A stretch of 64,000 nt of DNA, taken from positions 1 through 64,000 of IMG/VR virus record IMGVR_UViG_3300014204_000169. One strand, 5' to 3'. Shown here one piece after another: positions 1 to 64,000 of the stretch (position 1 is its first letter; each line of letters opens with the position of its first letter). The stretch is from a virus. Lineage: Duplodnaviria; Caudoviricetes. The notes beneath the pieces are model-generated. The model was given only the letters and a program-made list of their open reading frames with translations, made no database searches and was not told where the DNA came from. The position numbers and the translations under genes were made by a program.

Positions 1-1
1 A

Positions 2-181
2 ATTTATAGAACTAATGAGGACACAGTTATAGTTATCTCTTTAGGACCAACTGCAACATTACTTGCTGAACGGCTATCTAAATTTAGACAAACTTTGGAT
101 CTTGGGCATCTTGGGATGTTTTATGCTCATGTGCATCCTAAAACTCCTGGGTACATAAAGGAAAATCATGAAATTCATTGA
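2..181 (+). CDS. C-terminal fragment of GT-D fold (DUF1792-like) glycosyltransferase, runs off window start
   Basis: Frame 2 reads IYRTNEDTVIVISLGPTATLLAERLSKFRQTLDLGHLGMFYAH...TGA(179-181). LGPTAT..LA...D(L/I)GH is the conserved GT-D C-terminal signature. Not in ORF track. Confidence 0.7.
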   Translation: MYRTNEDTVIVISLGPTATLLAERLSKFRQTLDLGHLGMFYAHVHPKTPGYIKENHEIH

Positions 182-770
182 AGGGTACTATTGGCCTGAT
201 GATGTAGCGGAGAAATGGAAATGCTCCTTAACAAGAGTAAAAAGTCTTGGTGTAGCTGTTGGTTTTTGTAAAAGAAATAAAAGACTTAATACTGTGGTTC
301 AAGCTGGTGGTAGTATTGGTGTTTGGCCTAATTTACTTAGTAAGTATTTTAAAACAGTTTATACATTTGAACCGGAACCAATCTCATTTGAATGCTTGGA
401 TAAAAATGTGCATGGGATGAATGTTATTAAATCTAATTCGGCTTTAGGTGAAATTAATAAAGTAATATCCATGAACAGGATAAGTCTTACTGCACATAAA
501 GTAAGTTCTCTACCTGGCAATATACCAATGATTACAATTGACAGTTTACGTTTATTAAATTGTGATGCTATCTTATTAGATGTAGAAGGGTATGAATGGA
601 ATGTCCTTCAAGGTGCAGTTATAACTATTAATAAATATAAACCCTTAATTTTAGTAGAGGCTTTAAAAGAAAAACTTAATCCTGTGCATTTATATTTAAC
701 TAAATTAGAATATGAAAGAACTATGCACATAGAATTGGATGATATTTATGAATACCGAAAAAAGAATTAG
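168..770 (+). CDS. FkbM-family SAM methyltransferase
   Basis: VVQAGGSIGVW SAM motif, YTFEP, IDSL..L..CDAILLDVEGYEWNVLQGA..TI..KP.I.VE pattern. Confidence 0.85.
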   Translation: MKFIEGYYWPDDVAEKWKCSLTRVKSLGVAVGFCKRNKRLNTVVQAGGSIGVWPNLLSKYFKTVYTFEPEPISFECLDKNVHGMNVIKSNSALGEINKVISMNRISLTAHKVSSLPGNIPMITIDSLRLLNCDAILLDVEGYEWNVLQGAVITINKYKPLILVEALKEKLNPVHLYLTKLEYERTMHIELDDIYEYRKKN

Positions 771-1314
771 TAAGAGCTACCTGAAAATGAATAAACAACT
801 CCATGCTGCTCCAAGAGGATTTGGGGCTAGTGGATATCGCTGGGTAGATAGAATTAATATACTTATTAAAGATTATGATATTAAAACATGGCTGGATTAT
901 GGTTGTGGAAGAGAAACACTTTATCATAGTTATACTCATTTAGTAAGTTATACTCCTGTTTTATATGAAGGGTTTGACCCAGCAATTAAAGAAAGATCAA
1001 CAGAACCTACTCCAGCAGAACTTGTTACTGCAACAGATGTATTAGAGCATATTGAACCTGAATATCTTGATGCTGTATTAAATCATTTAGTTCAATTAAC
1101 AAAACATGTTTTGTTTTTGAATATAGCGATGCATCCAGCAAATAAAATATTGCCAAATGGAAAGAATGCACATTTACTTCAGAAGCCGGCCGATTGGTGG
1201 CTAACAAAATTAAATGGCTATTTTCCTAATTGGCAAACTTTTGCTATACCAGCACCAAAAGGGAGGGAATTAAAAGATTTTATTATTTACTTTGTAAAAG
1301 GTGATTATGAATAA
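739..1314 (+). CDS. Class I SAM-dependent methyltransferase
   Basis: WLDYGCG motif I, D.VTATDVLEHIEPE.L..VL, NAHL...P..WW. Confidence 0.8.
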   Translation: MIFMNTEKRISKSYLKMNKQLHAAPRGFGASGYRWVDRINILIKDYDIKTWLDYGCGRETLYHSYTHLVSYTPVLYEGFDPAIKERSTEPTPAELVTATDVLEHIEPEYLDAVLNHLVQLTKHVLFLNIAMHPANKILPNGKNAHLLQKPADWWLTKLNGYFPNWQTFAIPAPKGRELKDFIIYFVKGDYE

Positions 1315-2038
1315 CCCATTAATTACTTTTGTTTACTCTTATTATGATAATCCAGAAATGTTTTACCAACAACTATGTGTATGGAAATCATATCCTGAAA
1401 AAGTATTAAATCAGATTGAGTTTATTATTACTGATGATTGCAGTAGTAAAAAACCCATGTGCAAATCTGAGTTTCCTGAACTTAATATTAGGCAATTTCG
1501 GATTACTAAAAAAGTTCCTTGGAATTGGCTTGCTTGTAGGAATATTGGAGCTAAATATGCTTCTGGAAAATGGCTTTTACTAACTGATATGGATCATGTT
1601 GTTCAAACTGAACATGCTGCACAATTAGTAAAAGCTCTTACTAAAAATAAGAAAATAAAAACAGATATTGTTTATTTATTTAGAAGAATTGATGCCCCAG
1701 ATAATACACCATATAAATACCATGATGATTCTTTTTTTATGAGTAAAGAACTATATTGGAAAATTGGAGGATATGATGAAGAACTTTCTGGGAACTATGG
1801 TACTTCTGGAGGATATAGACGAAGGGCTTTTTCTATAGCTAATGGCAACCACAGATTAAAAATACCTCTTACTAGATATGATAGATCTGTAATTGCTGAT
1901 GCTAGTACAACAGAGTTTGCAAGAAAATTAGCACACAATGAACATAAGCATACTGTGTCTGATATTTTAAAAAGGAAGAAGGAAGAAGGAAGAGAAAAAG
2001 AGATACGAGTTTTGTCTTTTCCATATGAGGAAATATAA
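1301..2038 (+). CDS. GT-A fold (GT2/GT7-like) glycosyltransferase
   Basis: IITDDCS, CRNIGAKYA, LLLTDMD (DxD), KIGGYDE..SGNYG. Confidence 0.8.
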   Translation: MIMNNPLITFVYSYYDNPEMFYQQLCVWKSYPEKVLNQIEFIITDDCSSKKPMCKSEFPELNIRQFRITKKVPWNWLACRNIGAKYASGKWLLLTDMDHVVQTEHAAQLVKALTKNKKIKTDIVYLFRRIDAPDNTPYKYHDDSFFMSKELYWKIGGYDEELSGNYGTSGGYRRRAFSIANGNHRLKIPLTRYDRSVIADASTTEFARKLAHNEHKHTVSDILKRKKEEGREKEIRVLSFPYEEI

Positions 2039-2040
2039 TC

Positions 2041-2619
2041 ATGGGTATTAAAGTAAAGTATTTGGCTTTCTTTTGTGAAGCGTTAGAAGCGGCAGAAATA
2101 TTTCCAAGATATTCTGATGATCAGCTAATAATGAGTTATGCAGAATATAAAATGGCTGAACTTGGGAATCAACATATGAAACATCACTCAGACCCAGGTT
2201 TAGTAAAGTATGATCCTAATATGTGTAAAACAGGAAAAGAGTATTTTACTAAATTAGGATTTGACCATACTTCATTTGATATTAATGGACAAGATGGAGC
2301 AATACCAATTGATTTGGGATTACCAATTCCAGGAGAATTTAAGAATAAATTTGATATTGTTACTAATTTTGGTACTACAGAGCATGTGATAAGACAGCAA
2401 CAAGTGTTTAAGAATATACATAAGATGCTAAAGGTTGGTGGAATTGTAATTCATATTGTCCCTCTTGCGTATGGGCCATTAAAAGATCATGGTGTTCATC
2501 AGTATGACTTTAGTTTTTTTACAGCACTTTGCAGATTATATACTTATGAAATTCTCCTTCCTGCTGAAGAACGTAAAACAGTTCCAGGTTGTATAACTTC
2601 TTGTTTGAGGAAATTATGA
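2041..2619 (+). CDS. Class I SAM-dependent methyltransferase
   Basis: ELGNQ, SFDING..GA..IDL, FDIVTNFGTTEHV...QVFKNIH.MLKVGG. Confidence 0.75.
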   Translation: MGIKVKYLAFFCEALEAAEIFPRYSDDQLIMSYAEYKMAELGNQHMKHHSDPGLVKYDPNMCKTGKEYFTKLGFDHTSFDINGQDGAIPIDLGLPIPGEFKNKFDIVTNFGTTEHVIRQQQVFKNIHKMLKVGGIVIHIVPLAYGPLKDHGVHQYDFSFFTALCRLYTYEILLPAEERKTVPGCITSCLRKL

Positions 2620-3236
2620 TTTATCATCGTCCAGTTGCAAACTATGAGGCTTATGTTTATAAACAAGGTACAAAAGCTAGAAATAGGCCTGATTATGTAA
2701 AAGCTAGTAATAGTAAAAGATTTAGGGGTTTTGTACAGCATTTTAATGTTGTTAAGTCATATTTACATATGGGAAAAATACTTTGTCTTGGTGCTAGAAC
2801 AGGTTGTGAAGTTAGAGCAGCAAGAGCATTAGGATTTGAAGACTCCATAGGTGTTGATTTATTTCCTATTGGTGATTTAGTAATTCAAGGGGATTGGCAT
2901 AATTTACCTTTTACAGATAATAGTTTTGAGAATGTGTTTTCTAATTCCCTGGATCATTGTTTGGATTTAGATAAATTAGTTTTAGAAGTAAAAAGAGTAT
3001 TAATTACTAATGGTATTTTTGTTTATGAATCTGATACTTGTTATGCTTTAGATTCAAGAACAGTTCCATTATCTATGGAAGAAATATTAAACCCTGTATC
3101 TAATAGAAATCCATTAAATGCTATGTGGTGGGATTCACTAAAAGACATTGCCGATGCTTTTGTTATTCAAGGATTTGAAATTATTCATAAATATACGTAT
3201 GGGAAATATAGTGGGTATATTTTGAGGAAATTGTAA
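2589..3236 (+). CDS. Methyltransferase type 11-like
   Basis: LCLGARTG.EV, GVDL, GDWHNLPF.DNSFE.VFSNSLDH, EVKRVL...G. Confidence 0.8.
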   Translation: MYNFLFEEIMIYHRPVANYEAYVYKQGTKARNRPDYVKASNSKRFRGFVQHFNVVKSYLHMGKILCLGARTGCEVRAARALGFEDSIGVDLFPIGDLVIQGDWHNLPFTDNSFENVFSNSLDHCLDLDKLVLEVKRVLITNGIFVYESDTCYALDSRTVPLSMEEILNPVSNRNPLNAMWWDSLKDIADAFVIQGFEIIHKYTYGKYSGYILRKL

Positions 3237-4633
3237 TGGAGCCAGTATCTATTGTTTGTTGGAAATGGAAACCTTTACCGAAAACACTTTCAACAAAAAC
3301 AAGGACACAGTTTACTTATGTAGATGTAAATATTTTATATCAAATGTTAGTAAAACATTTGCATATACCATTTCAATTAATCTGTGTGACTGATGATCCT
3401 AAAGGTATTCGAGAAGAAGTTAAAGTAATCCCCTTGTGGGATGAATTTAGAAATAAGGGTGGATGTTTTGTCAGACTTAAATCATTTAGTAAAAATATCG
3501 CTTCTTTATTTGGCCCAAGATTTGTTTCTATTGATTTAGATTGTGTTATTGTTGACGATGTCACATCCTTATTCTCTAGGGCAGAAGATTTTATTATTTG
3601 GGGTGATCATGGTGGTGCTACCCAGTATTGTGGAGCATTGTGGATGATGAATTCTGGATGCCGTTCTCAAGTATACAGTTCATTTAACCCAGATAATTAT
3701 CAAATCACTTTTGGCAAATATAAAGGTGGTACGGATCAATTACACATATCAAATGTATTAAATAATGAATTGGTGTGGACAAAAGCAGATGGTATTTATG
3801 CATATAGAAATATGACGAATCCAAAATTACCCGAGAATGCAAAAATAATATTTTTTAATGGCACTAATCACCCAAGAGATTTTGCAATGCAACAATATTA
3901 TCCTTGGTTGAAAACGCATTATACTTGTTTTAGAGAAGAGGCTCAATTAATGAATCCGGTAAATGTTGTTTGTTTTTATTGGCTTGGAACTAAAGATTCC
4001 GGTTGGGAAGACCTCTCTCTTGCTGAGAGATATATTAATAATTTATATTTTAGTGTAAAAAAGAATACAACAATACCTTTTAAGTTTACTTGTTTTGTAC
4101 AAGATGGTTTAGTAATACCCAATTTAGACCCAAATATTAATGTTCATTATTTTACTGCTCCTGTATGGAAAGGCCGACTACCAAAATTATTTGCTTTTTC
4201 TAAAGAAGCTCAACTTGAGGGGCGTGTTGTTATATTAGATTTAGATTTATTAATTACAGGAAATATGGATAATATATTTTCCTATACAGGAAGATTCATG
4301 ACTAGGTCTGAACCTAGGGAAAATAATATATCTGGGGGAGACATAGTGTTTTTTGAAGCTAACACATTCCCATTTTGGGAAAATTTTAAAAAAGATACAG
4401 TAAATATTATAAATCAAACTAAAGGTAATGAGAGATACTTCTATAGACAAGCATTCAGAACTAAAATGGATTTTTTACAAATGGTATACCCCAATACTTT
4501 TTTGTCGTATAAAAGCCATATTCGTCGTAATATAGCAATTACTGATAAGACAAGGCTTGTCAGTTGTCATGGACATCCTAAGCCGCATGAACTTGTTGAC
4601 ACTGTTCCTTGGATTAAGGAGTACTGGAGATGA
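3236..4633 (+). CDS. Tandem two-domain GT-A glycosyltransferase
   Basis: Two homologous halves: VSIVCWKW..YVNILY.M...F.LICVTD..IDLDCVI..F.G..HP and VNVVCFYW..YINNLY..F.FTCF..LDLDLLI..CHGHPKP. Each half has a DxD. Confidence 0.75.
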   Translation: MEPVSIVCWKWKPLPKTLSTKTRTQFTYVDVNILYQMLVKHLHIPFQLICVTDDPKGIREEVKVIPLWDEFRNKGGCFVRLKSFSKNIASLFGPRFVSIDLDCVIVDDVTSLFSRAEDFIIWGDHGGATQYCGALWMMNSGCRSQVYSSFNPDNYQITFGKYKGGTDQLHISNVLNNELVWTKADGIYAYRNMTNPKLPENAKIIFFNGTNHPRDFAMQQYYPWLKTHYTCFREEAQLMNPVNVVCFYWLGTKDSGWEDLSLAERYINNLYFSVKKNTTIPFKFTCFVQDGLVIPNLDPNINVHYFTAPVWKGRLPKLFAFSKEAQLEGRVVILDLDLLITGNMDNIFSYTGRFMTRSEPRENNISGGDIVFFEANTFPFWENFKKDTVNIINQTKGNERYFYRQAFRTKMDFLQMVYPNTFLSYKSHIRRNIAITDKTRLVSCHGHPKPHELVDTVPWIKEYWR

Positions 4634-5241
4634 ATCAACCTATATTTTGTGTTTCTGTGGGGCGTAGCGGGACAAGCATGATCCTCCAGTTATTTAATAA
4701 GTGTGGTGCTTTTATTGGTACAGTTGGTAAAAATAGTAAGTATTGTGAGAATTTGGCTATCTTTTATAAGATTATACTTCCTTATGAAAAGAATAATATT
4801 AGAAAAATCCATTGGAGAGAATCCGTATTTACTCAGTTAAGATCAGATGGGTATACAGGTGGCCCATGGGGAATTAAGGGTGCTCACTTAATTACATTAT
4901 GGCCTATATGGGCAAAAGCTTTTCCTGAAGCTAAATGGGTTATAGTAAGAAGACGTACTGGTGATGTTATTAATAGTTATATGAAGACAAATTATATGTC
5001 TATAAATCATGAAGCTTGTCTTGAATTGATTCATCAGTATGAAAACAGTTTTATTGAATTAATAAATTATGGAGTAGATTATAAAGTAGTATGGCCTGAA
5101 AGAATGGCATATCATGATTATGATTCAATTAAAGAAGTTGTTGCTTGGTTAGGGCTGCAATGGAGTGATATAGCCTTTAAATTTATTGATCCTAAATTTG
5201 ATAAAACTAGAATTAAAGAGAATATTAGGAGAATGATATGA
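4630..5241 (+). CDS. Sulfotransferase family protein
   Basis: 5'-PSB loop VSVGRSGTSM, WGIKG, 3'-PB-like IVRRRTGDVINSY. Confidence 0.7.
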   Translation: MNQPIFCVSVGRSGTSMILQLFNKCGAFIGTVGKNSKYCENLAIFYKIILPYEKNNIRKIHWRESVFTQLRSDGYTGGPWGIKGAHLITLWPIWAKAFPEAKWVIVRRRTGDVINSYMKTNYMSINHEACLELIHQYENSFIELINYGVDYKVVWPERMAYHDYDSIKEVVAWLGLQWSDIAFKFIDPKFDKTRIKENIRRMI

Positions 5242-5636
5242 GTAGAGTAACAGCAGATGAAGTAAAGCTAATAATTGAAACATCTTTAAGTGATACTGTA
5301 ATAGATACATTTATTACTGCTGCCAATGGGTTAATAACATCTATGCTTGGCACAAGTACTGTATTAACTAGTACACAGTTAGCATCAATTGAGTTATTTC
5401 TTTCTGCTCATTTTTTAGCTTGTACAATGGAGAGACAATTAAAGTCTGAGACTGCTGGACAAGGTAAAGATGAATATGGTGGAACGTATGGTATGGGTTT
5501 AGATTTTACTTCTTATGGTCAGCAAGTTAAGGTGCTTGACGTAAGTGGTATTTTAGCACAACGTATTGGAAAACAAGCAGCAAGTATATATGCAATCCCT
5601 GTTGAAGACTCTGATGAAGAGGCTGCTTATGAGTGA
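5238..5636 (+). CDS. Head-tail adaptor (DUF4054-like)
   Basis: 132 aa, IELFLSAHFLA and T.YGQQ motifs; first gene of the neck block. Confidence 0.65.
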   Translation: MSRVTADEVKLIIETSLSDTVIDTFITAANGLITSMLGTSTVLTSTQLASIELFLSAHFLACTMERQLKSETAGQGKDEYGGTYGMGLDFTSYGQQVKVLDVSGILAQRIGKQAASIYAIPVEDSDEEAAYE

Positions 5637-6009
5637 TAATTTTATAAGAAGGTTTCCTTATAAATGTGTATATTGGGGGAATCCTGTTAATAATGGATAT
5701 GGAGGATATACTTTTGATGAGCCTATAGAAATTAATTGTAGATGGGAAGCTACAGGAATAGTAAATTTTCAACATAATGGTGTTGAAGTACAAGCAAAGC
5801 ATGAGGTGTATGTAGATCGAGATGTTGATGAAGAAGGTTATTTGTGGTTTGGTTTATTAGAAGATGTTGATTCTGGATTAATAGCTACACCAATAGATAT
5901 TGAAGATGCTGAAATGATTGTGCGATTTGATAAAATTCCAAATTTACGTGGGACTAAATACACTCGTAAAGCATTTTTAGGAAAAGAAAATACAGGACAA
6001 GCAAGATAA
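5629..6009 (+). CDS. Head closure / head-tail connector protein
   Basis: Start moved to ATG 5629 (MSDNF), overlapping the upstream stop. D.YG..TF..P.EI.CRWE pattern; synteny. Confidence 0.55.
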   Translation: MSDNFIRRFPYKCVYWGNPVNNGYGGYTFDEPIEINCRWEATGIVNFQHNGVEVQAKHEVYVDRDVDEEGYLWFGLLEDVDSGLIATPIDIEDAEMIVRFDKIPNLRGTKYTRKAFLGKENTGQAR

Positions 6010-6533
6010 TGTCTAATTATAGATATAAGAAGTTATTAGGGTTTGATCAGATAATGAGAAACTTTGATAATGAAATATACAAATTAAAAGGTCGAACTTT
6101 AAAAGGATTAATAAAAGCACAATCAGTTATCCATGAAAGTATGGATTCTGTGTCCCCAATGATTCCTGTTGAACATGGTAATATGCGAAAGAGTTGGTTT
6201 TGTGTAACAAGTAATGGTGCTGTTATTACAAAAGCATCTCCTAGCTTTACTAATGAAAATAAAGATGAAGCTCAATTAACATATGATCATAATAAAGCAT
6301 TAGTACAAGCTTTAGCAGAAGCTATTGAACGTGGTAAAGTATATGGCCCTCATATTGTATTTGGTTTTTCTGCTCACTATGCCCGTATAGTGCATGAGAT
6401 GTATAGTAATCAAGGAACTAAAGTAAAATGGACAAGGCAAGGTTCTGGCCCACAATTTTTTGTTGCTTCCATTAACCGTAATAAACGTAAAGTATTGAGA
6501 ATAGTTGCACAAGATGCTAGTATAAAATCATGA
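6009..6533 (+). CDS. HK97 gp10-like neck/tail completion protein
   Basis: IPVEHGNMRKSW, GFSAHYARIVHE, G.GPQFF; synteny. Confidence 0.6.
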   Translation: MSNYRYKKLLGFDQIMRNFDNEIYKLKGRTLKGLIKAQSVIHESMDSVSPMIPVEHGNMRKSWFCVTSNGAVITKASPSFTNENKDEAQLTYDHNKALVQALAEAIERGKVYGPHIVFGFSAHYARIVHEMYSNQGTKVKWTRQGSGPQFFVASINRNKRKVLRIVAQDASIKS

Positions 6534-6931
6534 ATATAACAAGTGTAGATATAAAAGATATGTTAGAAAGTGAAAGTTCTCTAGGACTTAATTTTGGAGT
6601 AGATTTATTTATTGGCAGAGAGCCTTCTACACCAAATAATTGTGTTACTGTTTTTGATAGTGTTGGTGATATATCTGACTTAACATTAGATGGGGTCGTT
6701 GTTTTAGATTATCCAGGCATTAAAATTCAAGTACGCAATACATCATATTTAGCAGCAGGAAATTTATGTAAGCAGATAAAGGGTTTTTTGAATGGTAAAA
6801 ATAATGAAATATGGACTAATACAACTTATTTAGTTATTAAGTGTGTTGGTGGACCAGCTCTATTAGATTATGATTCAAACAATAGAGCTAGGTGGTTTGT
6901 TAATTTTTTTATTATGTGTAAGGAGATCTAA
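6530..6931 (+). CDS. Tail terminator protein
   Basis: LFIGREP..P, YPGIKIQVRN.SY, D.NNR..W..NF; immediately precedes tail tube. Confidence 0.6.
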   Translation: MNITSVDIKDMLESESSLGLNFGVDLFIGREPSTPNNCVTVFDSVGDISDLTLDGVVVLDYPGIKIQVRNTSYLAAGNLCKQIKGFLNGKNNEIWTNTTYLVIKCVGGPALLDYDSNNRARWFVNFFIMCKEI

Positions 6932-6933
6932 TT

Positions 6934-7368
6934 ATGGGATCACCCATTTCTGGTGTAGGTACACAATTTGAACGATACAACACCACGTTAAATGCGTGGG
7001 AAGAGATTGGACACATCAAAAGCATTACTGGACCTAATAAATCCAGAAGTACAATTGATACCACTTCTTTGAACACCACTGGTGGATATCGAACATTTAT
7101 CACTGGTTTACGTGATGCTGGCCAAGTAACTCTTAGTATGTTTTATACTAGGGATACTTATGATTTGTTTAATACTGATTTTGAATCTGATGTAGAGAAA
7201 GATTATCAGATTATTTTGCCTGATTCTGAAAATACAGCTATCCCTTTTAATGGACTTGTTATTGAGATGCCTTTAACGATTCCTGAAGAGGCTGTTACGT
7301 TTGATGTAACGATTAAAGTTTCTGGACAAGCGGATGCTGATTCTGGAAGTGCTCCGAGCCCTGTGTAA
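6934..7368 (+). CDS. Major tail tube protein (siphovirus)
   Basis: IG.IKSITGP..SR.TIDTTSL..GGYRTFI.GLRDAG.V..S; F.G.V..M; TIKVSG. Confidence 0.8.
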   Translation: MGSPISGVGTQFERYNTTLNAWEEIGHIKSITGPNKSRSTIDTTSLNTTGGYRTFITGLRDAGQVTLSMFYTRDTYDLFNTDFESDVEKDYQIILPDSENTAIPFNGLVIEMPLTIPEEAVTFDVTIKVSGQADADSGSAPSPV

Positions 7369-7396
7369 TTTATTAAAACCTAATCATGGTTAATTT

Positions 7397-7879
7397 ATGG
7401 AGAATAATCAAATGAGTTTACTAGATAGAGCAGCACTATTAGCAAAAGAGAATCTTAAAATTGAAAAAGTTGAATTTCCTGATGGTTCTTATGTTTGTGT
7501 TAGGATGATGACGGGAAGAGAACGGGATAGGTTTGAAAAGTCTTTGATGGAAGAAAAAGTAGATAAAGACGGCATTATCACATATAAGCAAACGATGGAA
7601 GATTTTCGAGCAAAACTCGCTGTAAATGTACTTTGTGATGATAATGGTGTTAATTTACTAAAGTTTGATGATTATCGAATGCTTAGCACTAATATGTCTG
7701 CTGCCCGTTTAATTAAAATTGTAGATGCTGCTCAAAAATTAAATGCTATTGATGAAAAAACAAAAGAGAATTTGGTAAAAAACTCCGAAGCCGCCCAGAT
7801 AGAAGAAGAATTTTCAGGATTTGGCGCGGCCTCAACGGTTGTGGCTACAGTCATCCCGATAGATGGCTCGAAAGTTTAA
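7397..7879 (+). CDS. Tail assembly chaperone (G)
   Basis: Between tail tube and TMP; V.VRMMTG.ERD.FE motif; in-frame slippery A-AAA-AAC at 7777-7783. Confidence 0.8.
   Translation: MENNQMSLLDRAALLAKENLKIEKVEFPDGSYVCVRMMTGRERDRFEKSLMEEKVDKDGIITYKQTMEDFRAKLAVNVLCDDNGVNLLKFDDYRMLSTNMSAARLIKIVDAAQKLNAIDEKTKENLVKNSEAAQIEEEFSGFGAASTVVATVIPIDGSKV
7777..7783 (+). promoter_or_regulatory. Programmed -1 frameshift site A AAA AAC (G/GT)
   Basis: XXXYYYZ heptamer in frame (GTA AAA AAC). The -1 frame stays open from 7783 to 8172. Confidence 0.8.
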
Positions 7880-8172
7880 CTGGCATTGAATTAGCTGAGA
7901 TTGAAGCTTATGACAAATTGGAACCGTTTGGAAACATTGAAACCACATACATGTTGGCCCAACTATCTTCAATTGTTATTAATTCATTTCGAGCTATGGC
8001 TGGGAGTAAAGATTCAAAAAGCCTTGACGTGGGGGATTTTATACCTAAATGGGGAGAAACTTATACAAAGAAAGAACGGGAGCAAACAGTAGAAGAACAG
8101 AAGGCAATTATGATGGCAATACTAAAGCCTTCTATAGATAAACCAAAGACTAAACGAAGGGTAGTGAAATAA
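7783..8172 (+). CDS. Tail assembly chaperone GT, C-terminal -1 frame segment
   Basis: -1 frame reads LRSRPDRRRIFRIW...HPDRWLESLTGIELAEIEAYDKLEPFG and continues into the track ORF 7918..8172. Confidence 0.8.
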   Translation, partial: LRSRPDRRRIFRIWRGLNGCGYSHPDRWLESLTGIELAEIEAYDKLEPFGNIETTYMLAQLSSIVINSFRAMAGSKDSKSLDVGDFIPKWGETYTKKEREQTVEEQKAIMMAILKPSIDKPKTKRRVVK

Positions 8173-11100
8173 TGGATATCGGCGATTTAATGGGTTCTTT
8201 GGGAATGAATACAAAGGGCTTAGATGATGCCCGAAAGCGTTTAGTTGACTTTGGTAATTCTGTTAATAAAGAAATGCAATCTGCGCAAAAAGCCACCGAC
8301 CTTTTTTCACAAGGGGTCGGTGGTTCTGTAGTAAAAATAACTAATGAACTTACTAAAATGCAAAGAGTTGCAAAACTCACAGTAGGAGAAACTGCAAAAT
8401 CTTTTGAGAGTTTAGGTATATTTGCTAAAGGTACGGGGAGTCAAGTTAGTAAAGTAACTTCAGAAATGAAACTTGCTGCAATTGAAACAGCAAAATTAAA
8501 AAGAGAATCAGAAGCCTTAGCATTGGCTCAACAAAAAGCAAACAACCCGCTTGGTAATTTGCGAAATAGTTTATTAAGAACACCAACGAATGTAAATCAA
8601 AATTATCAACCTGCTAATTATGCTCGTCCTGGAGGTATTTCATATAGTGGTTCTAGTAGGCAATTACCTTTTGTTCCACTTAATAATGGTTTGAAATCTT
8701 CAGTAGATGCTTGGCAACTTTATAAAAATGCTGCTCAACAAGCAACATATGTAACAGATCAATTTGGTAATGCCACACGTAAGGTAACTCAAAGTGGTAG
8801 GGGGATGAATGATTGGGTTATTGGTGTTGCTAAAGGCATGTTGCTATATAAAGGTTTGTCTGTTGTACTAAATGTTCTTACTGAAGCTATTAAAGCCCCT
8901 GGAGAAGCTTCAAGAGAATTTGAAAAGAATTTTGCTAATGTGAAAAGGCTTTTTGAAGGAACTCCAGAAGAATTTAATAAAATGGGCAAGGAATTTAGAC
9001 AACTTGCTAAAGAGATTCCATTGCCCCTAGAAGAGATTTTGAAGTTAGGTGCTGCTGCTGGGCAGTTAGGCATAGAAAAAGAGAACGTAGTGGCTTTTAC
9101 AAGAACTATGGGCATGTTGGGAAAGACAGCAGATAACTTAAATTCAGAAGAATCAGCTATGGCTTTAGCTAAGTTTGCTAATATTGCTGATCTAGCTAAA
9201 GCTGATTTCGATAAGTTAGCTTCTGCAATACTTTATGCTGGAACTAAATCAGCTACTACAGAAAAAGATGTAGTAAACCTTGGACAAAGAATTGTTGCTA
9301 CTGGTAAGCAAATGGGTATGTCAAATGCTCAAGTGGTTGCTTGGGCAGCAGCAATATCTTCTGTAGGTGTTAGAGTGTATGCTGGTGGTACAGCATTTAA
9401 TACAATTCTTGCAAGTATGGATAGAGCTGTTGCTACAAATAGTAATAAACTAAAACTTTATAATAGTATTGTTCCAAATTTTGCTAATTTATTTAGAACA
9501 AATGCCTCTAATGCCTTAAATTTATTTGTAGAAGCTCTTGGTAAGATGGATAAGTCTAGTGGAAAAACTACTTTGACTTTAGATAGATTAGGTTTAAAGA
9601 ATGCTGGTGTTACCAGAACTTTACTAAGTTTAGCTAACGGGCATAAAATTATTAATCCTTTGATAGAAGGGACTTCAAATGCATATGCAAAAGGCACATA
9701 TGCAATGGAACAATTTAAAATAAAAACAGATACAGCAGATGCCCGAATTCAATTATTTAAGAATACAATGCATGATTGGGCAATTACCGTAGGGGATTCA
9801 TTTTTAACGGTTACTAAAAAAACATTTGATTGGGCAGCAAAAACTGTAGCTTCTGTGAATGCTGTTACAGTAGCTTTAGGAACTCTAACATCTGTAGCCG
9901 TTATTGGTGGGCTTATTTCTCTTGGAGGAAAACTTACTAATTTATGGCTATCATTTTCTTATGGTTTGGGGACTATTGAAGCTCTTAAAGGCGGTGTAAT
10001 GGGTTTAGCAGCAGCATTTCCAATTTTAATAACTGCTGTAACAGCAACTATAGCTGTTTTTACTGGATGGAAAATCGGAGAGTGGATTGATAAATTTGAT
10101 TTATTAGGAACACATGCAGAATCAGCTTCTAAAAAAATTGCAAATACTTCTTGGGCACAAGCAAGATTATTAAAAGCTCAAGCAGAGAGTATGGGGATTG
10201 ATTTAACTTCAAAAGGATTAGGTTCAATTAGTCCTAATAATCTTTCTTACTACTCAAATGAGGTTCAAAAAATAATTGATCAATACAAAAAGGAGCATCC
10301 TGAGTTAGTAAAAGTAAATAAGGAACTGAAGAATCAAGTAAATTGGATGAATGAGATTGCTGCTGCTGAAGCTAGGGCTTCAGGGGAATCTGAGAAATTA
10401 ATACCTTATTTAACTAAATTAAATGAAGCAAAAACTAATTTAGAAGCTGCAATTAAATCAGCAAGAGAAGGTGTTGGGGATACTAATGAATTAAAAACAT
10501 TATCTCAAGCAGTAAATTTAGCACAGAAGAAATATGATTTGATGAAAGAGCAAGAAAAACTTAGTAAAAAAATATATAAGATGGAAAACTTATCTGCCCC
10601 TATTAGTTCTATTAGAACTATGCCTAAAGGAACTAAAGAAGGATTAGAACATCTTAGAACTCAAGGTTATCTTGGTCCAGTAGCAGAAGTACTTACTAAA
10701 AATGCTTTTGCTGCAATGGATGATTGGATTAAGCAAGTTAGAGAAGCAAGAGAGATGGAGTTAGAGTTAAAGAAGAATATTATTTCTGAACAAATGAAAC
10801 AATTAGATTTTGAAAAAGAAATGTATCAACAGGGTATGATTTTTACTGCTGAAGAACAAAAAGCAGCAGAAATTAAAAAAGTTAATTTTGATTCAATTAA
10901 TGAAAAGAAAAAATTAGAATTGCAATATCAATTAACTTCATTAGACTTGGAAAAAGAATTAGAGAATATAAGAGAACATTCTAAAACTGGTTCTGGATTC
11001 TTACCATTTTTACTTGCTCAAGCCCAAGCAAAAGCTAAATTAGCAAAAACTATTTTAGAACAAGAAACAAGTAATCTTGAGATTGCTAGAATAAAGAAAA

Positions 11101-13247: not shown

Positions 13248-13256
13248 GATTTAATA

Positions 13257-16200
13257 ATGACTTGGACTCCAGATACAACACCAGCATCTAGGACATTCCC
13301 ACTATCTGCAAGTGATGAACAATTTCCACTTTTACAGGGTGAAGCTAGTGTTGTACCTACACCTACAGGAGCTGAAGCATTAAAATTTTATGTTGATTGG
13401 AATAACAATTTAATGTTTGACCACGCATATTCAGATATTTCTGATTATGTACAAAGTGTGTCTTGGTCAAGAGGTAGATCTGGACCATCTCCTCAATATG
13501 ATGTTGCTGGAACAATGCAACTTAACTTATTAAATAATACTGCTATTTTTTCATCTTTTAATACAGCAAGTCCTATTTATGGATTAATACTTCCAAATTT
13601 AAGAGTAAAAATTACTTCTCAAATTGGCAGCGGTTCAATAGAAATAGTAGGTTTATTTAAACTTGATTCTATTATTCCAGAAACAGGCTCTTGTAAAAAT
13701 GAAGGAACAGCAACACTTGCTGCATCTGGAGTTATTTCAAGATTTACTAAAGGTAAAGTAAATATAGCTTTACTTAATAATGCTCCTACAGGAAATCATG
13801 TTGAATTAATCCTAGATAACTATGGTGTCCATCCTTCCGAAAGAATCGTTGACACCGGATTATCTACTATTAGCAAATGGTGGTTTTCTAAAGATAGTTC
13901 ATACCTTGAAGAACTTCATGCAATTCAAGATGCTGAATGTGGTCGTTTTAGAGGAGATCGAAAAGGAAATCATGTTTTTGATGATCGAGCACATTCATAT
14001 AATCCACCAAATGATGTTGCTCAAGTAATATATGGTACTAGTGGGCTTGGTTTATGGGATGTTCAGCAATTTGATCCTATTGAAAATATTTATAATTATG
14101 CTACTGGAAAAGTAAAAGTATTTAATACATCAGAAGATATGATCCTTACTATAATTTCTGATGTTGTTGGTAATTCAGGTGGAACTCCTCCTATTGTTCC
14201 TGGCAATGGTACTTTAACAGTTAGATTTGAATGTCCTTGTCCAGGCAGTCCTTCAGAAGTTAAATCAGTAGATTCTTGGAGTATTGTAGATCTTGAAGGA
14301 AACACTAATGCTGCTGGTACTGGAACGGATATTACTACAGATTTATCTTATGTAAAAACTGAATATGGTCAAAAATTAGAAGTAGTAATAACAAATGTAA
14401 ATGCATTACCTGCACATCTTATTATGTTAAGAGCCCATGGTGTTGCAATTGTTGAAGGTGATGTTACAGAAATTATATCTCAAGATACAACTAGTATTAC
14501 CAAATATGGGAAAAGAGAATTTCCAAATATTAATGAGTGGGACACTAATCTTGAAGATGCTCAAGCTAGATTAGATTATTTAATTGCAATTAATAAAGAC
14601 CCAAAACCAAGAATACAGTTTACTGTTAAAGGTGTTAATGAACTCCATCTAGTAGAAATGCAAAAGCGTGAACTAGGAGATAGGATACATGTTAATGCAT
14701 CTCTTGCGGCTACTGGATTAGCCATTGATGCTGATTTTATTGTTGATCATATACAACACGCAAAAGACATAAATTCTTTACATACAATGCAAATTACATG
14801 TACTTTTGCTCCAACAATACAACTTGCAAAGAGTGGGACGGCTTACACGCCGAAAGTAATTCCAACGGCTACGAAAGATTTCGTCCTTCCCGGAGTGCCT
14901 ATTTCGTTGAGCGTTGAGGCTTCTACCTATAAATTTGTAGTACAGTGGGTAGATCCAGCAACGGGCAATCTGACCCTATTCGATAGTTGCGTGCAATTCG
15001 CCTCTGATGCCGCATTCACGACCGATGTAACTACTCGTTATGGATTAGGATATGTAAATAATTACACGTTCTCTTTTCCGCTTAAGACTCGCTATTTCCG
15101 GGTGGCGATGTACAACGAGTCTGGACTAGCCTCAAATGCCACTACAAAGGCCGCTATCGTTGCGGCTGGCGGAAGCGCTGATTATGGCTGGGGTCCATTT
15201 TGCGCCGTATCTGCGGCTGTCACAACTGCAGGACTGCTTACAACAGACGTTGCCCCAAACACACTTGTTCCTGCAAATATGAACATTTCCCTGCGCGGGT
15301 GGACGCTCACTTGCGTATTTTCTGCCCTCGACGCCGATACCGTTCAATGGACATCGGGAACTTTCACGGCAGCGGATGGTACGCCATATGCCATAAGCGC
15401 TGGAAATACCGGCAATATGGCAGCGGTAACGCATATCTACCTAGACATAAATATATCTACCACGGCATTGCAAGTGACCGCTAATGCAGCGTTATCATTG
15501 GGGATTGGTCGCGTACAGGTTGGGGTGGCTATCAATCAAACATCCCGCGCAACATTCCAAATATTTGGAGGTGTTGGCGGAATTAATCTGCTTGTTGACA
15601 ATTTGGTCTCCAATGCGGCCAGCGTGAACGAATTCATATCAAATACGGCCCAAATTGCCAATCTTATTGTGACCAATGCCAAAATAGCGGGACTATCTGT
15701 TGATAAGCTGACCGCAGGGGCGATCACTTCGAAAATCATAGAACTTGTTCTTGATCCAGGTAATGGTGACGCTGCAATCCGATTAGGAAAGACGGATTTT
15801 GGAGACGATACGCATTCAGGATTCATTCTTGGGGCCGACGATAGCGATAGCGATAAGCCAAAGTTTGAAATCGGTTCAAGCGCTACAAAGAAGCTTTCTT
15901 ATGACGGCACTGACCTTGCGCTTATCGGTGGAACTGTTACCGGCGGGACGCTCCAGACGGAAGCAACTGCATCCAGGGGTTTTAAAATAACATCGACTGG
16001 CTTCAAGGGATACGATGGGGCTGGCGCTGAAACGCTGTCTTATACAGCATTAACTGGAGCAATCGCGCTCACGGGCTCAATAACCGCAGGAGTAGGATCA
16101 ACTATTGCAGCGACGTATTTATCGGGCCAGATCATTGATAGTCAGATTGCACCGGGAGCCGTTCTTGGTAGCTCTGGAGATCCTGCGGCACCAGATTTTA

Positions 16201-49149: not shown

Positions 49150-49517
49150 TTTATATTCTCCTGTAATTTTTTAACCATATCCGTCAATTTATATATTAAT
49201 CTATGTGGTTTATCTGCCCATTCATAACTCAATGGGCCTTCCCCATAAACAGCTTTACTAAAATCTTCTAAAGTATATTCTTCTTTAGATTCTAAAATAC
49301 TCTGCATAAAGGTTTTAATTTCTAAAATTTCATTTTCTTTATCTTCTTGCCCTAATTGAAATATTTCATTAATAAAATTTAATTCCAGTAAAGCATCATC
49401 ATAAGAAATGAAGTTGTGCGGGCCTTCTTTTATTAAATTTTCATCTACTATGTAGTAATAAACTTCTTGTGTTTCTATGTCTTTTTCTTCTTTAATGCAA
49501 AAGTTGGTTTGTTTCAT
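49146..49517 (-). CDS. Hypothetical protein
   Basis: Co-oriented, overlapping junctions. Confidence 0.5.
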   Translation of the reverse strand: MKQTNFCIKEEKDIETQEVYYYIVDENLIKEGPHNFISYDDALLELNFINEIFQLGQEDKENEILEIKTFMQSILESKEEYTLEDFSKAVYGEGPLSYEWADKPHRLIYKLTDMVKKLQENIK

Positions 49518-60166: not shown

Positions 60167-60364
60167 CTAAGTTAATTCCTCCCATGCTAGCGCAAAATCA
60201 GTTTGAAAAACTATATAGTGTAATTTTTCTACATATGTACCATTCAAAGCGTTTTTATATTCTTGAATTATTTTGTTATTCTTGTATAAAAAGGCTTTTC
60301 TTACTAACTTTATCTGCTTTTCTTCTGATAATTCTTTGAAAGTCTCAAATTTATTAATGTTCAT
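60167..60364 (-). CDS. Hypothetical early protein
   Basis: TAATG overlap with upstream gene. Confidence 0.45.
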   Translation of the reverse strand: MNINKFETFKELSEEKQIKLVRKAFLYKNNKIIQEYKNALNGTYVEKLHYIVFQTDFALAWEELT

Positions 60365-60795
60365 TATTTCACCTCTTTATTCTTGATTGTTCGAGCGAAT
60401 ATCTCAGAGATATTAACTAGTTTGTCGTTATATTCGATCATAAATGAACTGGTAAATGCCGAATGGTACTTTCCACCAATACTGACAAAGCCCTCCAATT
60501 CATATCCAGATTGCCCTACATGGTTCAAAGTACGCAATCCATAAACCCGCAATTTAGTATAATATGGTTCATAGTGGGAATTATCTATGCTGTTTTCATC
60601 CTGTTGGGTAGCACAGGCTTGAAATTTACTAATAATTCCCCATGGCCCCCTTGTTTCAATTTTTCCAGGTATGTCATCTTGTGCCGGATTAGTAAAATTC
60701 AGTCCAATAGTTTTCCAGATAGGACTATCAATATTATCTGGTATCCAGGTGGAGCTAGGCCATACTCTATGACATGTAGTAAAATTTTCTTTCAT
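60364..60795 (-). CDS. Hypothetical early protein
   Basis: GAAAGAG RBS; LEG.VSIGGK. Confidence 0.5.
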   Translation of the reverse strand: MKENFTTCHRVWPSSTWIPDNIDSPIWKTIGLNFTNPAQDDIPGKIETRGPWGIISKFQACATQQDENSIDNSHYEPYYTKLRVYGLRTLNHVGQSGYELEGFVSIGGKYHSAFTSSFMIEYNDKLVNISEIFARTIKNKEVK

Positions 60796-60841
60796 TGTGG
60801 CTCTCTTTCATATTACTAAATGTTAAATTTGCCTTTAATTT

Positions 60842-60881
60842 TATAACACATGTTATAGCAGGTGTTATAACACATGTTATA
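60842..60881. promoter_or_regulatory. Tandem operator-like dyads TATAACA-CA-TGTTATA x2
   Basis: Identical 16-bp dyads at 60842-57 and 60866-81. Confidence 0.6.
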
Positions 60882-61483
60882 TAAACCAAAATTTACTAAT
60901 AATTTCATAACAATTACATTAATAGGCTCATAAACAAACAAGAACAATCAACACTAAAGCTTATAAGACTATTAATAGGATAGTCAGAGTATTTAATAGG
61001 TAGAGTAGAGGTATTAAAGAGTATAACTACTCTACCTGTATATGTAATGTATGGTTTATGTGTGTTTTGCTCCTTATATTGTGTGTTATTTTATTAATTT
61101 TACGCTTTGAGCCATGCTCATTACGTTGTTTTTATTAATAATACGTTGTTTTGCGTTATCCGACCAACGCTATTCTTAGTAAACTATTCTTACTAAAAAT
61201 AGATTACTAAATAAAAAGGTTAAAAATTACTAAACTATTTGTAAACCGTGGTAAAAACAGTTCTATCCGGTTTATCCTGATAAATGTTAGTAAAAAATAC
61301 TTCAATTCAAATCATACGATTGGCAAATTGTTCCCCAATACCATAACGCAATAGGCTCTTAATTGATTTATACTCGCTTCTGAGCATTCGATTATTTATG
61401 CCTACTTCATCATATGTGCCATCGGCGTTTTGTCTTGTGATAATTGCCTTCATTGTTTTCCCCTCCCAAAATTACTAAACTAA

Positions 61484-61714
61484 TTAGGCATAATATTCTG
61501 ATATCCTGCAATTGGTAGCATCTACCCAACGTATGCTAGTTCTCTCATGGGATAACCATGGTGGAATCTCAACAAGTGCAAACAATATGCCTTTTTGAGT
61601 CTTTACCTGGTAAACTTTTAGTTTTTCTTCTTGCATTGTTCCTGATATCGGTCGGAACAAAAAAAGGTTTCCAGATTGTTTTAGTAATTTATTAATAGCT
61701 TTCGCTGTTTTCAT
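61484..61714 (-). CDS. Hypothetical early protein
   Basis: GGAGG RBS. Confidence 0.45.
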   Translation of the reverse strand: MKTAKAINKLLKQSGNLFLFRPISGTMQEEKLKVYQVKTQKGILFALVEIPPWLSHERTSIRWVDATNCRISEYYA

Positions 61715-62117
61715 TTCTTGACCTCCAAAATTACTAAACTATATGCAGTATTCCCAATTCCAGCATTTTGGAAAAGGATCGTAGGGACATGAAAAACAAG
61801 GCACAATTAAAGCCAGAAGAGCAATAGACTTTATCTTCTGATACTGTAAGGCCATAAATGGTGCAATCGTTCTTATATCTAGCCGCAAACATGGTTTATC
61901 TCCTTTGATTTAGTTTATTAAAAAAGCACTCTATAGAATGCACAAGCTTTATAGCGTATGCACTCTAACAATGCTTTTCAGTTCATATAACCTCGCTTTT
62001 TAGTTTACTAAACAATCAAGTCTATACAGGTTAAAGTCGCATAATATCACCTCCAATTAGTTTAATAAATTAATTCAACATATATGCGCTCAAATTACTA
62101 AGCGCATAAATGCGGAA

Positions 62118-62294
62118 TTAATTATTAATATAATAATCGTACGCTATTGACGCTGTCTTAACTGATATATTGCATTTTTTTGCAGCAATGGCAATTTCTG
62201 ATTTTTTAGGATGAAATGGTTTATGGTTTATAGGCATTTCTTGTGCAACGGAACGCCCTTGATACCATTTTTTTCTTTCTTCTATTGTAGGCAT
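62118..62294 (-). CDS. First early gene, 58 aa, possible HTH
   Basis: GAGAGGA RBS downstream of the strong promoter; EIAIAAKKCNISVKTA. Confidence 0.45.
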   Translation of the reverse strand: MPTIEERKKWYQGRSVAQEMPINHKPFHPKKSEIAIAAKKCNISVKTASIAYDYYINN

Positions 62295-62343
62295 TGTCTT
62301 ATCCTCTCTTTATCTATCGTCATTAACTCTCAATCACATTATT

Positions 62344-62372
62344 ATAATAATTGATTTATATAATTGTGTCAA
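62344..62372 (-). promoter_or_regulatory. Strong sigma70-type early promoter
   Basis: TTGACA-17-TATTAT. Confidence 0.7.
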
Positions 62373-62760
62373 TACTTATTTCATTAAATAATGCATTTTT
62401 ATTTGATTAATTTATTAAATTAATTTGGTCCTAATCGCTTGACTTCTTTCCTGTCCTATGAGTCATTATTTCATTAAATGAAACATTGTCACGTTCACAA
62501 GACATATCATTTAATACAATATTGCATATCATCCCATTTACTAAACTAATATGCAAACGTGCTTTCAGCACGCATACGCACATATCCCATTTACTAAACT
62601 ACCACAGAACATGACACTAAACATACCTGCATACATACAGTAGGCATAGGTAGTTCATAGCCTATTAGTTTACTAAATCAAATTTACTAAAATAATACAC
62701 AACAAGACATTCATTATACTGCATTCATAGTGTGGAACCCTATTCTGTTATGTTGCAATC

Positions 62761-62820
62761 TCACCCCACCCCCCGGCCTATTGGCGGATGGGGTTGTGTG
62801 GAGGGGTGCCATGACGTCCG
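62761..62820. other. GC-rich island, candidate packaging (cos/pac) or terminus region
   Basis: CACCCCACCCCCCGGCC...GGGGTTGTGTGGAGGGGTG in AT-rich non-coding DNA at the polarity switch. Confidence 0.3.
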
Positions 62821-63105
62821 AAATATTACTAATTAAAATTTACTAAAAATACTAATATCGTTTACTAAACTAAATTGAATAATCGTGCAGGACACACAGA
62901 ATATAAAAGCGCTGATTATAAACAACGTGATTTCACTACACAGTACAAAACACTAATAACGTGTGGAACGCGATAGTATTAATATATATTCAAAAAATAT
63001 TACTAAAAATTTTATTAAGAAAACACAAAAATAGGTTACTAAAACAACAATAACCCTTTACTATCTCTACTAGTGTATTTACTGTTGTTAATTTTTAGTA
63101 TTTTA

Positions 63106-63294
63106 TTAATAATCAGTTCTACTGGCTTCTGGGTAATAATGTTTTGGTATAATTCTGATTGTAGTATATTTTTTACCTTCTTTTACTAATTTATCAATAA
63201 ACTCTTTACTAAATGTCACATAAGTAAAATGATTTGGTTTTTTGTTATAACAATCAGTTGAATTATCTTTTCTCATAAATCCTCCAATAATCAT
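63106..63294 (-). CDS. Hypothetical protein
   Basis: GGAGG RBS near the second Met. Confidence 0.35.
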   Translation of the reverse strand: MIIGGFMRKDNSTDCYNKKPNHFTYVTFSKEFIDKLVKEGKKYTTIRIIPKHYYPEASRTDY

Positions 63295-63404
63295 TATATC
63301 ATAACTCTTCTGTAATGGGTTCTATCAGTAATACCATACAATGAGCCAATAATAAGTTTATATAGGCTTAGAATTGATTATACAAGGGATAAAGTGCTAA
63401 TAAG

Positions 63405-63434
63405 TTGACAATTATCCTGAACAATGAGTAATAT
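63405..63434 (+). promoter_or_regulatory. Rightward sigma70-like promoter
   Basis: TTGACA-18-TAATAT upstream of GAGG RBS + ATG 63476. Confidence 0.45.
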
Positions 63435-63475
63435 TGAGCTGGAATATGAATTAATTACTATTTAAGAGGTTAATT

Positions 63476-63697
63476 ATGGATGTAGGTAGAATAAATTTTA
63501 GTAATAACTCAAATTATTTATGTTGTAGAGGTTTAGTAAATTGTATGGAGAAATCTAAACCTGAGACTATTACAGTGGAATGTAATTCTGAAAACAGTAG
63601 ACAGATAAAAGAGATATTTAGTAATCTGCAAGTACCTGTAATTACTAAAAGGAGAAATAATCATGGAAGACACAATTACTATACAACAAGTTATTGA
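63476..63697 (+). CDS. Hypothetical protein
   Basis: AAGAGG RBS. Confidence 0.4.
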   Translation: MDVGRINFSNNSNYLCCRGLVNCMEKSKPETITVECNSENSRQIKEIFSNLQVPVITKRRNNHGRHNYYTTSY

Positions 63698-63962
63698 TTT
63701 AATGAATGAGGCACTTAATTTGGATAGAGAAGCTATTACTAATTTAGTGCGCACAAGAGTTGTCTGTAATAAAGCTCTTACAGAGCACCCTACTATTCAG
63801 GTTGGGGGAGAAGATCCTAATATTGGTGAAGTTGGACTATTGGGAATAATAAATGGTTTATTTAGTAAAACTAAAGGTGGTTGGGGTAAAATATGCACTA
63901 TCTCTGAAAATGGCTTTATTGAAAGGTTCTCATTGACTGAAAAAGAAACAAAAGGAAAATAA
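63663..63962 (+). CDS. Conserved phage hypothetical protein
   Basis: LNEAL.LDR.AI..L...RV.CN..L..HPTIQV....VGLLGIINGLF. Confidence 0.6.
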   Translation: MEDTITIQQVIDLMNEALNLDREAITNLVRTRVVCNKALTEHPTIQVGGEDPNIGEVGLLGIINGLFSKTKGGWGKICTISENGFIERFSLTEKETKGK

Positions 63963-64000
63963 TCATGGAAATTACTATAAAGCTATCAACTGGAAAAGAA

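Follow-up and report, generated by a model that had tools for sequence, protein, structure and literature searches.

TTASTAA, a seven-base palindrome enriched throughout the genomes of two unrelated phages

The stretch of DNA considered here, hereafter the window, comprises positions 1 to 64,000 of the IMG/VR virus record IMGVR_UViG_3300014204_000169 (Duplodnaviria; Caudoviricetes), and the element in question is the palindrome TTASTAA, in which the central S is C or G. The window is the first part of a 74,118-bp contig. Since the ends of this contig overlap by 124 bp, it is taken as a complete phage genome of 73,995 bp; its IMG/VR completeness class is 100% and its GC content is 32.7%. The window contains 213 copies of TTASTAA and the whole genome 234, approximately one per 316 bp. 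A preliminary description of the window, made from its letters alone, had proposed a dispersed dyad-symmetric site under selection. This proposal is borne out at the level of DNA by the use of two codon frames and both orientations, the near-saturation of compatible positions, non-random spacing, a second phage, and arrays of the same heptamer in bacteria.

Distribution of TTASTAA along the genome

The late genes lie on the plus strand, where they begin near 63.4 kb, cross the origin, and end at 19.7 kb. Their products are the terminase, portal, capsid, a glycosyl/methyl/sulfo-transferase cluster, the tape measure, and tail proteins. The remaining genes form a 43-kb block on the minus strand. 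The sites are distributed over these regions as follows.

1-14830, plus strand: native late region with dispersed sites (33), comprising the glycosyl/methyl-transferase cluster and tail genes; observed/expected 7.4 in 1-5241 and 5.0 in 5242-14830
14830-19320: GC-rich (46%) tail-tip/tailspike module; 0 sites versus 0.4 expected, or about 4 at the enrichment of the genome
19800-60800, minus strand: nucleotide metabolism, replication, recombination, and small early genes; 150 sites, observed/expected 4.9-12.9 by sub-region
60800-63300: mostly non-coding control region; 23 sites, 9.2 per kb, observed/expected 16.9
61176/61190/61204/61227, 62670/62684, and 62826/62840/62862: local arrays in the control region
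61176-61233: densest array, four sites, start-to-start distances of 14, 14, and 23 bp
63300-64000, plus strand: start of the late block that runs on to 73,995; 6 sites

All native parts of the genome are enriched 5- to 17-fold, including the whole of 63300-73995 (27 sites versus 4.0 expected). Site spacing in 19800-60800 is near Poisson (coefficient of variation 1.09). The counts that had been made by hand (15 in 1-4200, 21 in 61141-63220, and zero in 14830-19320) proved exact, and the highest density is indeed in non-coding DNA, with 5.1 sites per kb in intergenic and 2.9 in coding sequence.

For the genome as a whole, the expectation is 26.7 sites under a first-order Markov model (observed/expected 8.75) and 72.5 under a third-order model. 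No other 7-mer is as over-represented as TTASTAA, and the lists of 8- and 9-mers are headed by its extensions. The excess outlasts every form of shuffling applied and is no artefact of codon usage, which had been anticipated not to be the whole explanation. Coding DNA contains 191 sites, whereas 57.1±5.6 are left after synonymous-codon shuffling (z ~24), 28.9±5.3 after shuffling of codon order, and 116±6 after third-position shuffling that keeps dinucleotides (z ~12). Intergenic DNA contains 41 sites versus 4.0-11.4 under Markov models of orders 1-3.

Unrelated AT-rich phages, in which an equal abundance would have spoken against selection, do not show it. Across 61 AT-rich IMG/VR viral loci (663 kb), observed/expected is 1.15, with a maximum of 2.7. 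No enrichment is seen in the control phages, phage T4 (26 sites versus 14 expected) and contig L001 (9 versus 8.7), nor in the contigs that carry the best helicase and terminase matches (L001 and L004). Likewise, five other viral records, each with one local triple array, are not enriched, and a scan of viral contigs with the extended motif returned only chance matches and tandem repeats. The AT-rich part of the phage contig L126, which is related to the window through its tail genes, has a weak excess (10 sites versus 3.9), and a candidate host-like contig has 1 site versus 2.4 expected.

The module at 14830-19320 is foreign DNA which has not yet acquired the motif, and recently acquired DNA is the part of the genome from which TTASTAA is missing. 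The module shares 69-78% nucleotide identity with the tail module of L126 (positions 1-11800), a JGI phage contig whose entire tail region is 45-50% GC. A tailspike homolog, 50% identical, is found on a 45%-GC bacterial contig (L124, L125), where its neighbours are type II secretion genes and a cluster of polysaccharide genes.

The control region also differs in orientation. Between 60 and 64 kb the sites are polarised, with 26 C and 8 G centres on the plus strand, and an extended oriented form, TAGTTTAGTAA, has 11 copies on the minus strand versus 1 on the plus strand genome-wide. It recurs on the minus strand of the control region, in part just 5' of the ribosome-binding sites of small early genes. 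A promoter function was considered and rejected, as the arrays miss both strong sigma-70-like promoters (62372-62344 on the minus strand and 63405-63434 on the plus strand) and late genes use TATAAATA. Nor are the numbers those of a phage promoter element, with 234 copies, about 190 of them inside genes, in both orientations.

Two further features were noted in this region. A GC-rich island at 62750-62820, flanked by TTASTAA arrays on both sides, contains a possible 11-bp G/C hairpin whose folding energy is no better than that of shuffled sequence (z 0.32). At 60841-60881, in non-coding DNA upstream of gene 60364-60795, there are two perfect 17-bp copies of TTATAACACATGTTATA, 24 bp apart and each internally palindromic, which could be an operator or origin element.

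Anatomy of the site and its recurrence in other genomes

The information in the site is confined to exactly seven positions, and the flanks T(-1) and A(+7) are weakly preferred. One-mismatch variants range from 0.45- to 2.2-fold, except TTACTAC at 4.2-fold. It had been stated that the motif occurs in both orientations; TTACTAA and TTAGTAA do both occur, but each is the other's reverse complement, and in duplex DNA they form a single site.

In genes, the sites occupy only the two stop-free frames, TTA-STA-A and xTT-AST-AAx, and both central bases are found in each. On the sense strand, the centre is C in 101 and G in 89 coding sites, and C in 20 and G in 21 intergenic ones. Because both frames and both orientations are used equally, the selected object is duplex DNA rather than RNA or peptide. 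Compatible amino-acid contexts are close to saturation: 188 of 282 carry the motif versus 44 expected, comprising 78 of 132 contexts in frame 0, where codon usage predicts 13.6, and 110 of 150 in frame 1, where it predicts 30.2. The enrichment is paid for in both synonymous and amino-acid changes. In the tail genes shared with L126 (50-70% amino-acid identity), all seven phage sites are missing from L126, and the sites arose through changes of both kinds.

Other palindromes are strongly avoided by this genome, and the excess of TTASTAA is thus not a general tolerance of palindromes. Among 6-bp palindromes, the genome-wide observed and expected counts are 0/10.3 for GCATGC, 0/8.1 for GGATCC, 1/29 for CTTAAG, 1/18 for GTTAAC, 2/22.5 for TCTAGA, 1/10.6 for AACGTT, and 2/12.4 for TTAATTAA, a pattern consistent with heavy pressure from type II restriction. 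Phages are known for avoiding short palindromes, and in a phage that does so strongly a near-saturated palindrome is the opposite signal.

Neighbouring sites keep a minimum or preferred spacing of about 13-14 bp. Pairs 12-15 bp apart are in excess (10 versus 3.8 expected, P 0.006), as are pairs 22-30 bp apart (16 versus 8.5, P 0.012), whereas none are found at 7-11 bp (4.7 expected, P 0.008) or at 16-21 bp (5.6 expected, P 0.006). The spacers of paired sites are unrelated, so the pairs are not tandem duplications. Tandem heptanucleotide repeats, with a period of 7 or a multiple of it, are equally unsuited to describe them, as no sites are closer than 12 bp and the spacers differ. No longer-range periodicity of the sites was found in the genome.

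When IMG/VR was searched for local triple arrays, most of the matches were tandem repeats. One locus was of another kind, L373 (12.9 kb, 45% GC), with 65 dispersed sites versus 2.85±1.7 in shuffles. Its full record, G006 (76,350 bp, 100% complete), contains 300 sites versus 12 for the reversed control word. The polymerase segment of G006 is 100% identical, at the same coordinates, to that of Vibrio phage SSP002 (JQ692107.1), and about 39 isolates share 90% identity or more. The 9-mer TTTASTAAA occurs 12 times versus 0.34 expected, which is the same flank preference as in the studied phage, and the site pairs of SSP002/G006 are also 13-15 bp apart. Searches of G006 with the phage terminase, tailspike, thymidylate-synthase-like gene, P0126, P0127, P0129, and P0130 gave no match, and the helicase gave only a marginal one. 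The enrichment has arisen independently in an unrelated phage, which argues against an accident of lineage. Other Vibrio phages are not enriched relative to the control word (Brizo 39/37, D386 32/21, and KVP40 29/99, if anything depleted), which argues against a general effect of host composition.

SSP002 also offers two candidate DNA-coating proteins of its own. A four-site array (L373 2149-2234) is directly upstream of a ParB-like gene (L373 2248-3294), and a nearby early gene (L373 995-1714) encodes a 239-aa protein with a lysine/proline/alanine-rich tail like that of histone H1 or AlgP.

The same heptamer serves a bacterial protein family as an operator-like element. Bacterial genomes, one per species, were scanned for triple arrays, which yielded mainly 7-nt and 12-15-nt tandem repeats. 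Nine loci in Firmicutes and Bacteroidetes are different, with 3-7 copies of TTASTAA at exactly 15-bp spacing, in mixed orientation and with variable spacers.

Bacterial array loci: L129, L145, L153, L164, L213, L221, L227, L229, and L243

These nine arrays sit 8-100 bp upstream of AAA+ ATPase_2 genes of two subfamilies, one with DUF234. At one locus, the array is placed between the -10 box and the ribosome-binding site. Paralogs of ATPase_2 in the same genomes have different upstream repeats, which fits self-recognition with diverging specificity and suggests that the large ATPase_2/DUF234 family may regulate itself via repeats whose specificity differs between paralogs. The array-linked proteins match the PADLOC candidate defence system PDC-S27 (E 6e-62), and DUF234 and DUF4143 have been listed among the PD-(D/E)XK nuclease folds (PMC3424549). 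Genomes with such ATPases are neither depleted nor enriched for TTASTAA (0.45-1.46-fold). The arrays provide a first functional handle on a very large, uncharacterised prokaryotic family, one clade of which uses TTASTAA.

Arrays of alternating orientation with 12-13 bp spacing were observed at three other loci, L178 6652-6683 (Neisseria), L181 3076-3119 (Psychrobacter), and L283 1759-1792 (a viral contig). They lie 23-55 bp upstream of the gene for a shared protein of 138-154 aa, unassigned to a family, which starts with MDIPTHLNHKPIVK.

Gene content, candidate binders and competing explanations

The replication genes of the phage encode a split family-A DNA polymerase (with UDG-like and exonuclease domains), a clamp, a clamp loader, a DnaB-like helicase, a primase, and an O-like initiator; the recombination functions are RecA-like, SbcCD-like, and RusA-like. 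Genes of nucleotide metabolism and transcription include the following.

19857-20252: MazG-like pyrophosphatase
20669-21505: divergent thymidylate-synthase-family enzyme
36985-38181: UDG-like domain fused to polymerase exonuclease
41532-42059: dCMP deaminase
49514-49972: sigma-70 region-2 protein (152 aa, E 1.8e-8)

The nucleotide-metabolism set is akin to that of phages with a replaced pyrimidine, for example hydroxymethyluracil. The thymidylate-synthase-family enzyme has no sequence match in the PDB. At genome 67079 and 70541 (L003 3079 and 6541), the portal and major capsid genes are closely preceded by TATAAATA, a late promoter word of the T4 type, which fits the phage-encoded sigma factor. 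Together with the genes for the sigma factor, clamp, and clamp loader, this word suggests that late transcription may be T4-like. Neither tRNA genes nor Rfam families were found in the phage. The collections searched contain no close relative, the best helicase and terminase matches being 47% and 52% identical, respectively. A Vibrio-like host is only hinted at, by the tailspike homolog on a 45%-GC bacterial contig with type II secretion genes and by the best helicase and polymerase matches, which are among Vibrio phages.

Four proteins had been put forward in the preliminary description as binders of the motif, and none of them gained support. The product of 28101-28577, thought to be RHH-like, has no RHH match, only a weak Smr-like one (E 0.0037), and its AlphaFold model is unreliable (pLDDT 52). 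The proteins of 40545-41357 and 62118-62294 match no family, and that of 44137-44571, described as HTH, has only a short HTH_Tnp_1 match. Three of the four (P0129, P0130, and P0126) have no homolog in SSP002, where 62118-62294 was not searched. A bZIP-like binder was also considered and discarded, as the basic-region signature was not found in the phage proteome and the coiled-coil protein of 43887-44144 is devoid of a basic region. The ParB_N profile PF02195 and the ParB-like protein of SSP002 find nothing in the phage genome at E up to 1, and the basic protein of 50270-50743 has no usable match in the protein atlas.

Two small proteins are recorded for their patterns. A 46-aa protein (26014-26154) shows a classical C2H2 zinc-finger pattern (zf-Di19, E 7.7e-5), with two TTASTAA in the 3' end of its own gene. 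A 92-aa protein (44585-44863), whose gene adjoins that of the replication initiator, carries CxxC...HH...CxxC, the kind of pattern seen in small HNH nucleases.

It seems that TTASTAA is a short, strict recognition site for a two-fold-symmetric, that is dimeric, DNA-binding protein under additive selection, a reading to which a probability of roughly 0.55 may be assigned. Sites would be selected wherever the genome can hold them, with tighter arrays in the early control region, and many weakly beneficial binding events would add up. Binding could mark, coat, organise, or shield the phage DNA, or it could soak up a host protein. We infer that a host protein, or a small phage protein as yet unrecognised, is a likelier binder than any of the four candidates named above.

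Several observations weigh against this reading. When almost the entire set of phage proteins was compared with Pfam and PHROGs, no HU, RHH, Cro/CI-type HTH, ParB, or DNA methyltransferase came to light, and no ATPase_2/DUF234 homolog was found in the studied phage. No gene common to the two motif-rich phages was found among the minority of genes tried. The pair spacing of 13-14 bp in the phages differs from the 15 bp of the bacterial arrays, and the spacing statistics rest on small counts. Moreover, selection and biased conversion predict the same pattern and cannot be told apart on the basis of one genome.

The latter process would be biased gene conversion, or a repair resembling the very-short-patch type, and has a precedent in what has been proposed for cyanobacterial HIP1. 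A site-specific nicking or mismatch enzyme would resolve heteroduplexes, which are common in a phage replicating by recombination, toward TTASTAA, and the motif would spread without benefit to the phage. This would suit the near-saturation of compatible positions, the depletion of some one-mismatch neighbours (TAACTAA 0.45-fold, TTACTTA 0.52-fold, and TGACTAA 0.54-fold), and the zero sites in the recently acquired GC-rich module, and the phage encodes RecA-, SbcCD-, and RusA-like functions as well as the HNH-like (44585-44863) and weakly Smr-like (28101-28577) proteins. However, the usual catalytic motifs are by inspection lacking in the Smr-like protein, neither of these two proteins has a homolog in SSP002, and TTAWTAA, the expected product or substrate of deamination, is enriched 2.2-fold instead of being depleted. 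Neither the spacing rules nor the non-coding arrays are predicted, and conversion is on the whole considered unlikely. A similarly low standing is given to a special case of protein recognition, speculative although the strongest of the new leads, in which the sites serve as decoys or a sponge for a host AAA+ ATPase-nuclease like ATPase_2/DUF234 (PDC-S27), or as a means to evade it. The host protein would bind arrays at its own promoter, and hundreds of replicating phage copies would titrate it or hold it in a resting, DNA-bound state. TTASTAA arrays directly upstream of ATPase_2/DUF234 genes at no fewer than nine loci, the match to PDC-S27, the nuclease-fold classification of DUF234, and the convergence of two unrelated phages without a shared gene found so far all point in this direction. 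Yet both hosts appear Vibrio-like and a TTASTAA-specific ATPase_2 gene was not found in any Vibrio, the array spacing differs as stated above, the ATPase-bearing genomes show neither depletion nor enrichment, and the three other Vibrio phages are not enriched; furthermore, PDC-S27 is only a candidate defence system and binding of the array by the ATPase itself is inferred. It is correspondingly doubtful that loading a genome with hundreds of copies of one palindrome, so as to capture or neutralise ATPase_2/DUF234 or some similar protein of the host, would be a cis-acting, sequence-encoded counter-defence that two or more unrelated phage lineages evolved separately.

The heptamer may instead be the target of a sequence-specific DNA modification, placed on the central C:G pair or on the six flanking T residues, with modified sites protecting or marking the phage DNA. 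Restriction-modification enzymes typically recognise odd palindromes centred on S, and the divergent thymidylate-synthase-family enzyme, dCMP deaminase, MazG-like pyrophosphatase, and UDG-domain DNA polymerase form a set which resembles that of phages with hydroxymethyl-pyrimidine DNA. Nevertheless, Pfam scans of the phage proteins revealed neither a DNA methyltransferase nor any other enzyme of site-specific modification; the methyltransferases encoded at 168-3236 are of the small-molecule type and belong to the late operon, and the thymidylate-synthase-like gene has no match in SSP002. The strong avoidance of 6-bp palindromes speaks for DNA that ordinary restriction can reach, and the status of a target alone does not explain the multiplication of sites, which makes modification improbable. 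By far the least credible explanation, and one largely refuted, is a by-product of translation, such as hidden stops that catch frameshifted ribosomes, codon-pair bias, or a peptide preference. Off-frame, TTAGTAA does contain two in-frame stops (TAG TAA), TAGTAA is enriched 4.6-fold overall, and several intergenic copies lie just 5' of Shine-Dalgarno sequences. However, words with equal stops are not enriched (TTAGTGA 1.0-fold, TTAGTAG 1.2-fold, and CTAGTAA 0.7-fold), and TTAATAA with TTATTAA reaches only 2.2-fold. In addition, all four codon contexts in the two frames are enriched, the enrichment is higher in intergenic than in coding DNA, and orientations relative to transcription are equal.

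A recognition site under additive selection would mean that some protein-DNA interaction carries sufficient weight to alter codon choice across the genome, and with it the sequences of proteins. Depending on the binder, TTASTAA would represent a new way to organise or mark phage DNA, a new cis-encoded counter-defence, or a new sequence drive. As the motif also saturates the cultured and tractable SSP002 and many close relatives, direct experiment is possible.

Comparison with known systems

Among the nearest analogues are the NBS sites of Noc and the parS sites of ParB. Like TTASTAA, these are short palindromes found across a whole replicon, and protein dimers bind them to organise or mark DNA. 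The phage sites share the dispersion over the replicon and the clustering near a regulatory region. They differ in size and number, as NBS and parS are 14-16 bp long and present in tens per chromosome, whereas TTASTAA occurs 234-300 times per 75 kb. A ParB-family protein encoded on the same replicon is lacking in the studied phage, while SSP002 has a ParB-like gene.

HIP1 (GCGATCGC) of cyanobacteria is a perfect palindrome that occurs once per few hundred bases, within genes and in several frames, and both selection and biased repair have been proposed for it. TTASTAA is likewise a short, highly repeated palindrome inside genes in several frames. HIP1, however, is 8 bp long, GC-rich, and a feature of cellular genomes, whereas TTASTAA is 7 bp long, AT-rich, and enriched in phage genomes only, the candidate host-like contig and the other tested bacteria being without enrichment. 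Chi, DNA uptake sequences, and KOPS resemble the interpretation given to TTASTAA in that their genome-wide excess is kept by many small effects through one protein machine. They are asymmetric, strand-oriented features of host chromosomes that some phages copy; by contrast, TTASTAA has dyad symmetry, shows no preferred orientation except in the control region, and is not in excess in sampled bacterial DNA.

The arrays before ATPase_2/DUF234 genes (COG1672; PDC-S27) have the identical heptamer, in both orientations and with variable spacers. They are local and precede one gene, in contrast to genome-wide dispersion, and the protein family is not in the phage, where pairs are 13-14 bp apart and a single pair is at 15 bp. 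The response element of the fungal bZIP proteins Yap1 and Pap1 is TTACTAA/TTAGTAA, which the homodimer reads as overlapping TTA half-sites around a central C:G. Its sequence is identical to the phage motif, but it belongs to eukaryotic promoters, and the phage proteome is without the bZIP signature.

Abundant phage proteins that cover the phage genome are exemplified by TF1 of SPO1 and p6 of phi29. TF1 acts on hydroxymethyluracil DNA, and the studied phage has a comparable nucleotide-metabolism gene set. TF1 and p6 nonetheless recognise DNA flexibility and not a strict 7-bp word, and an HU-family protein was not found in the studied phage. Restriction-modification systems and orphan methyltransferases are associated with a cognate enzyme, and Pfam scans of the phage revealed only methyltransferases of the small-molecule type. 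Full-text literature searches pairing the motif with phage terms returned no description of TTASTAA in phages. None of the nearest analogues agrees with it in all defining respects.

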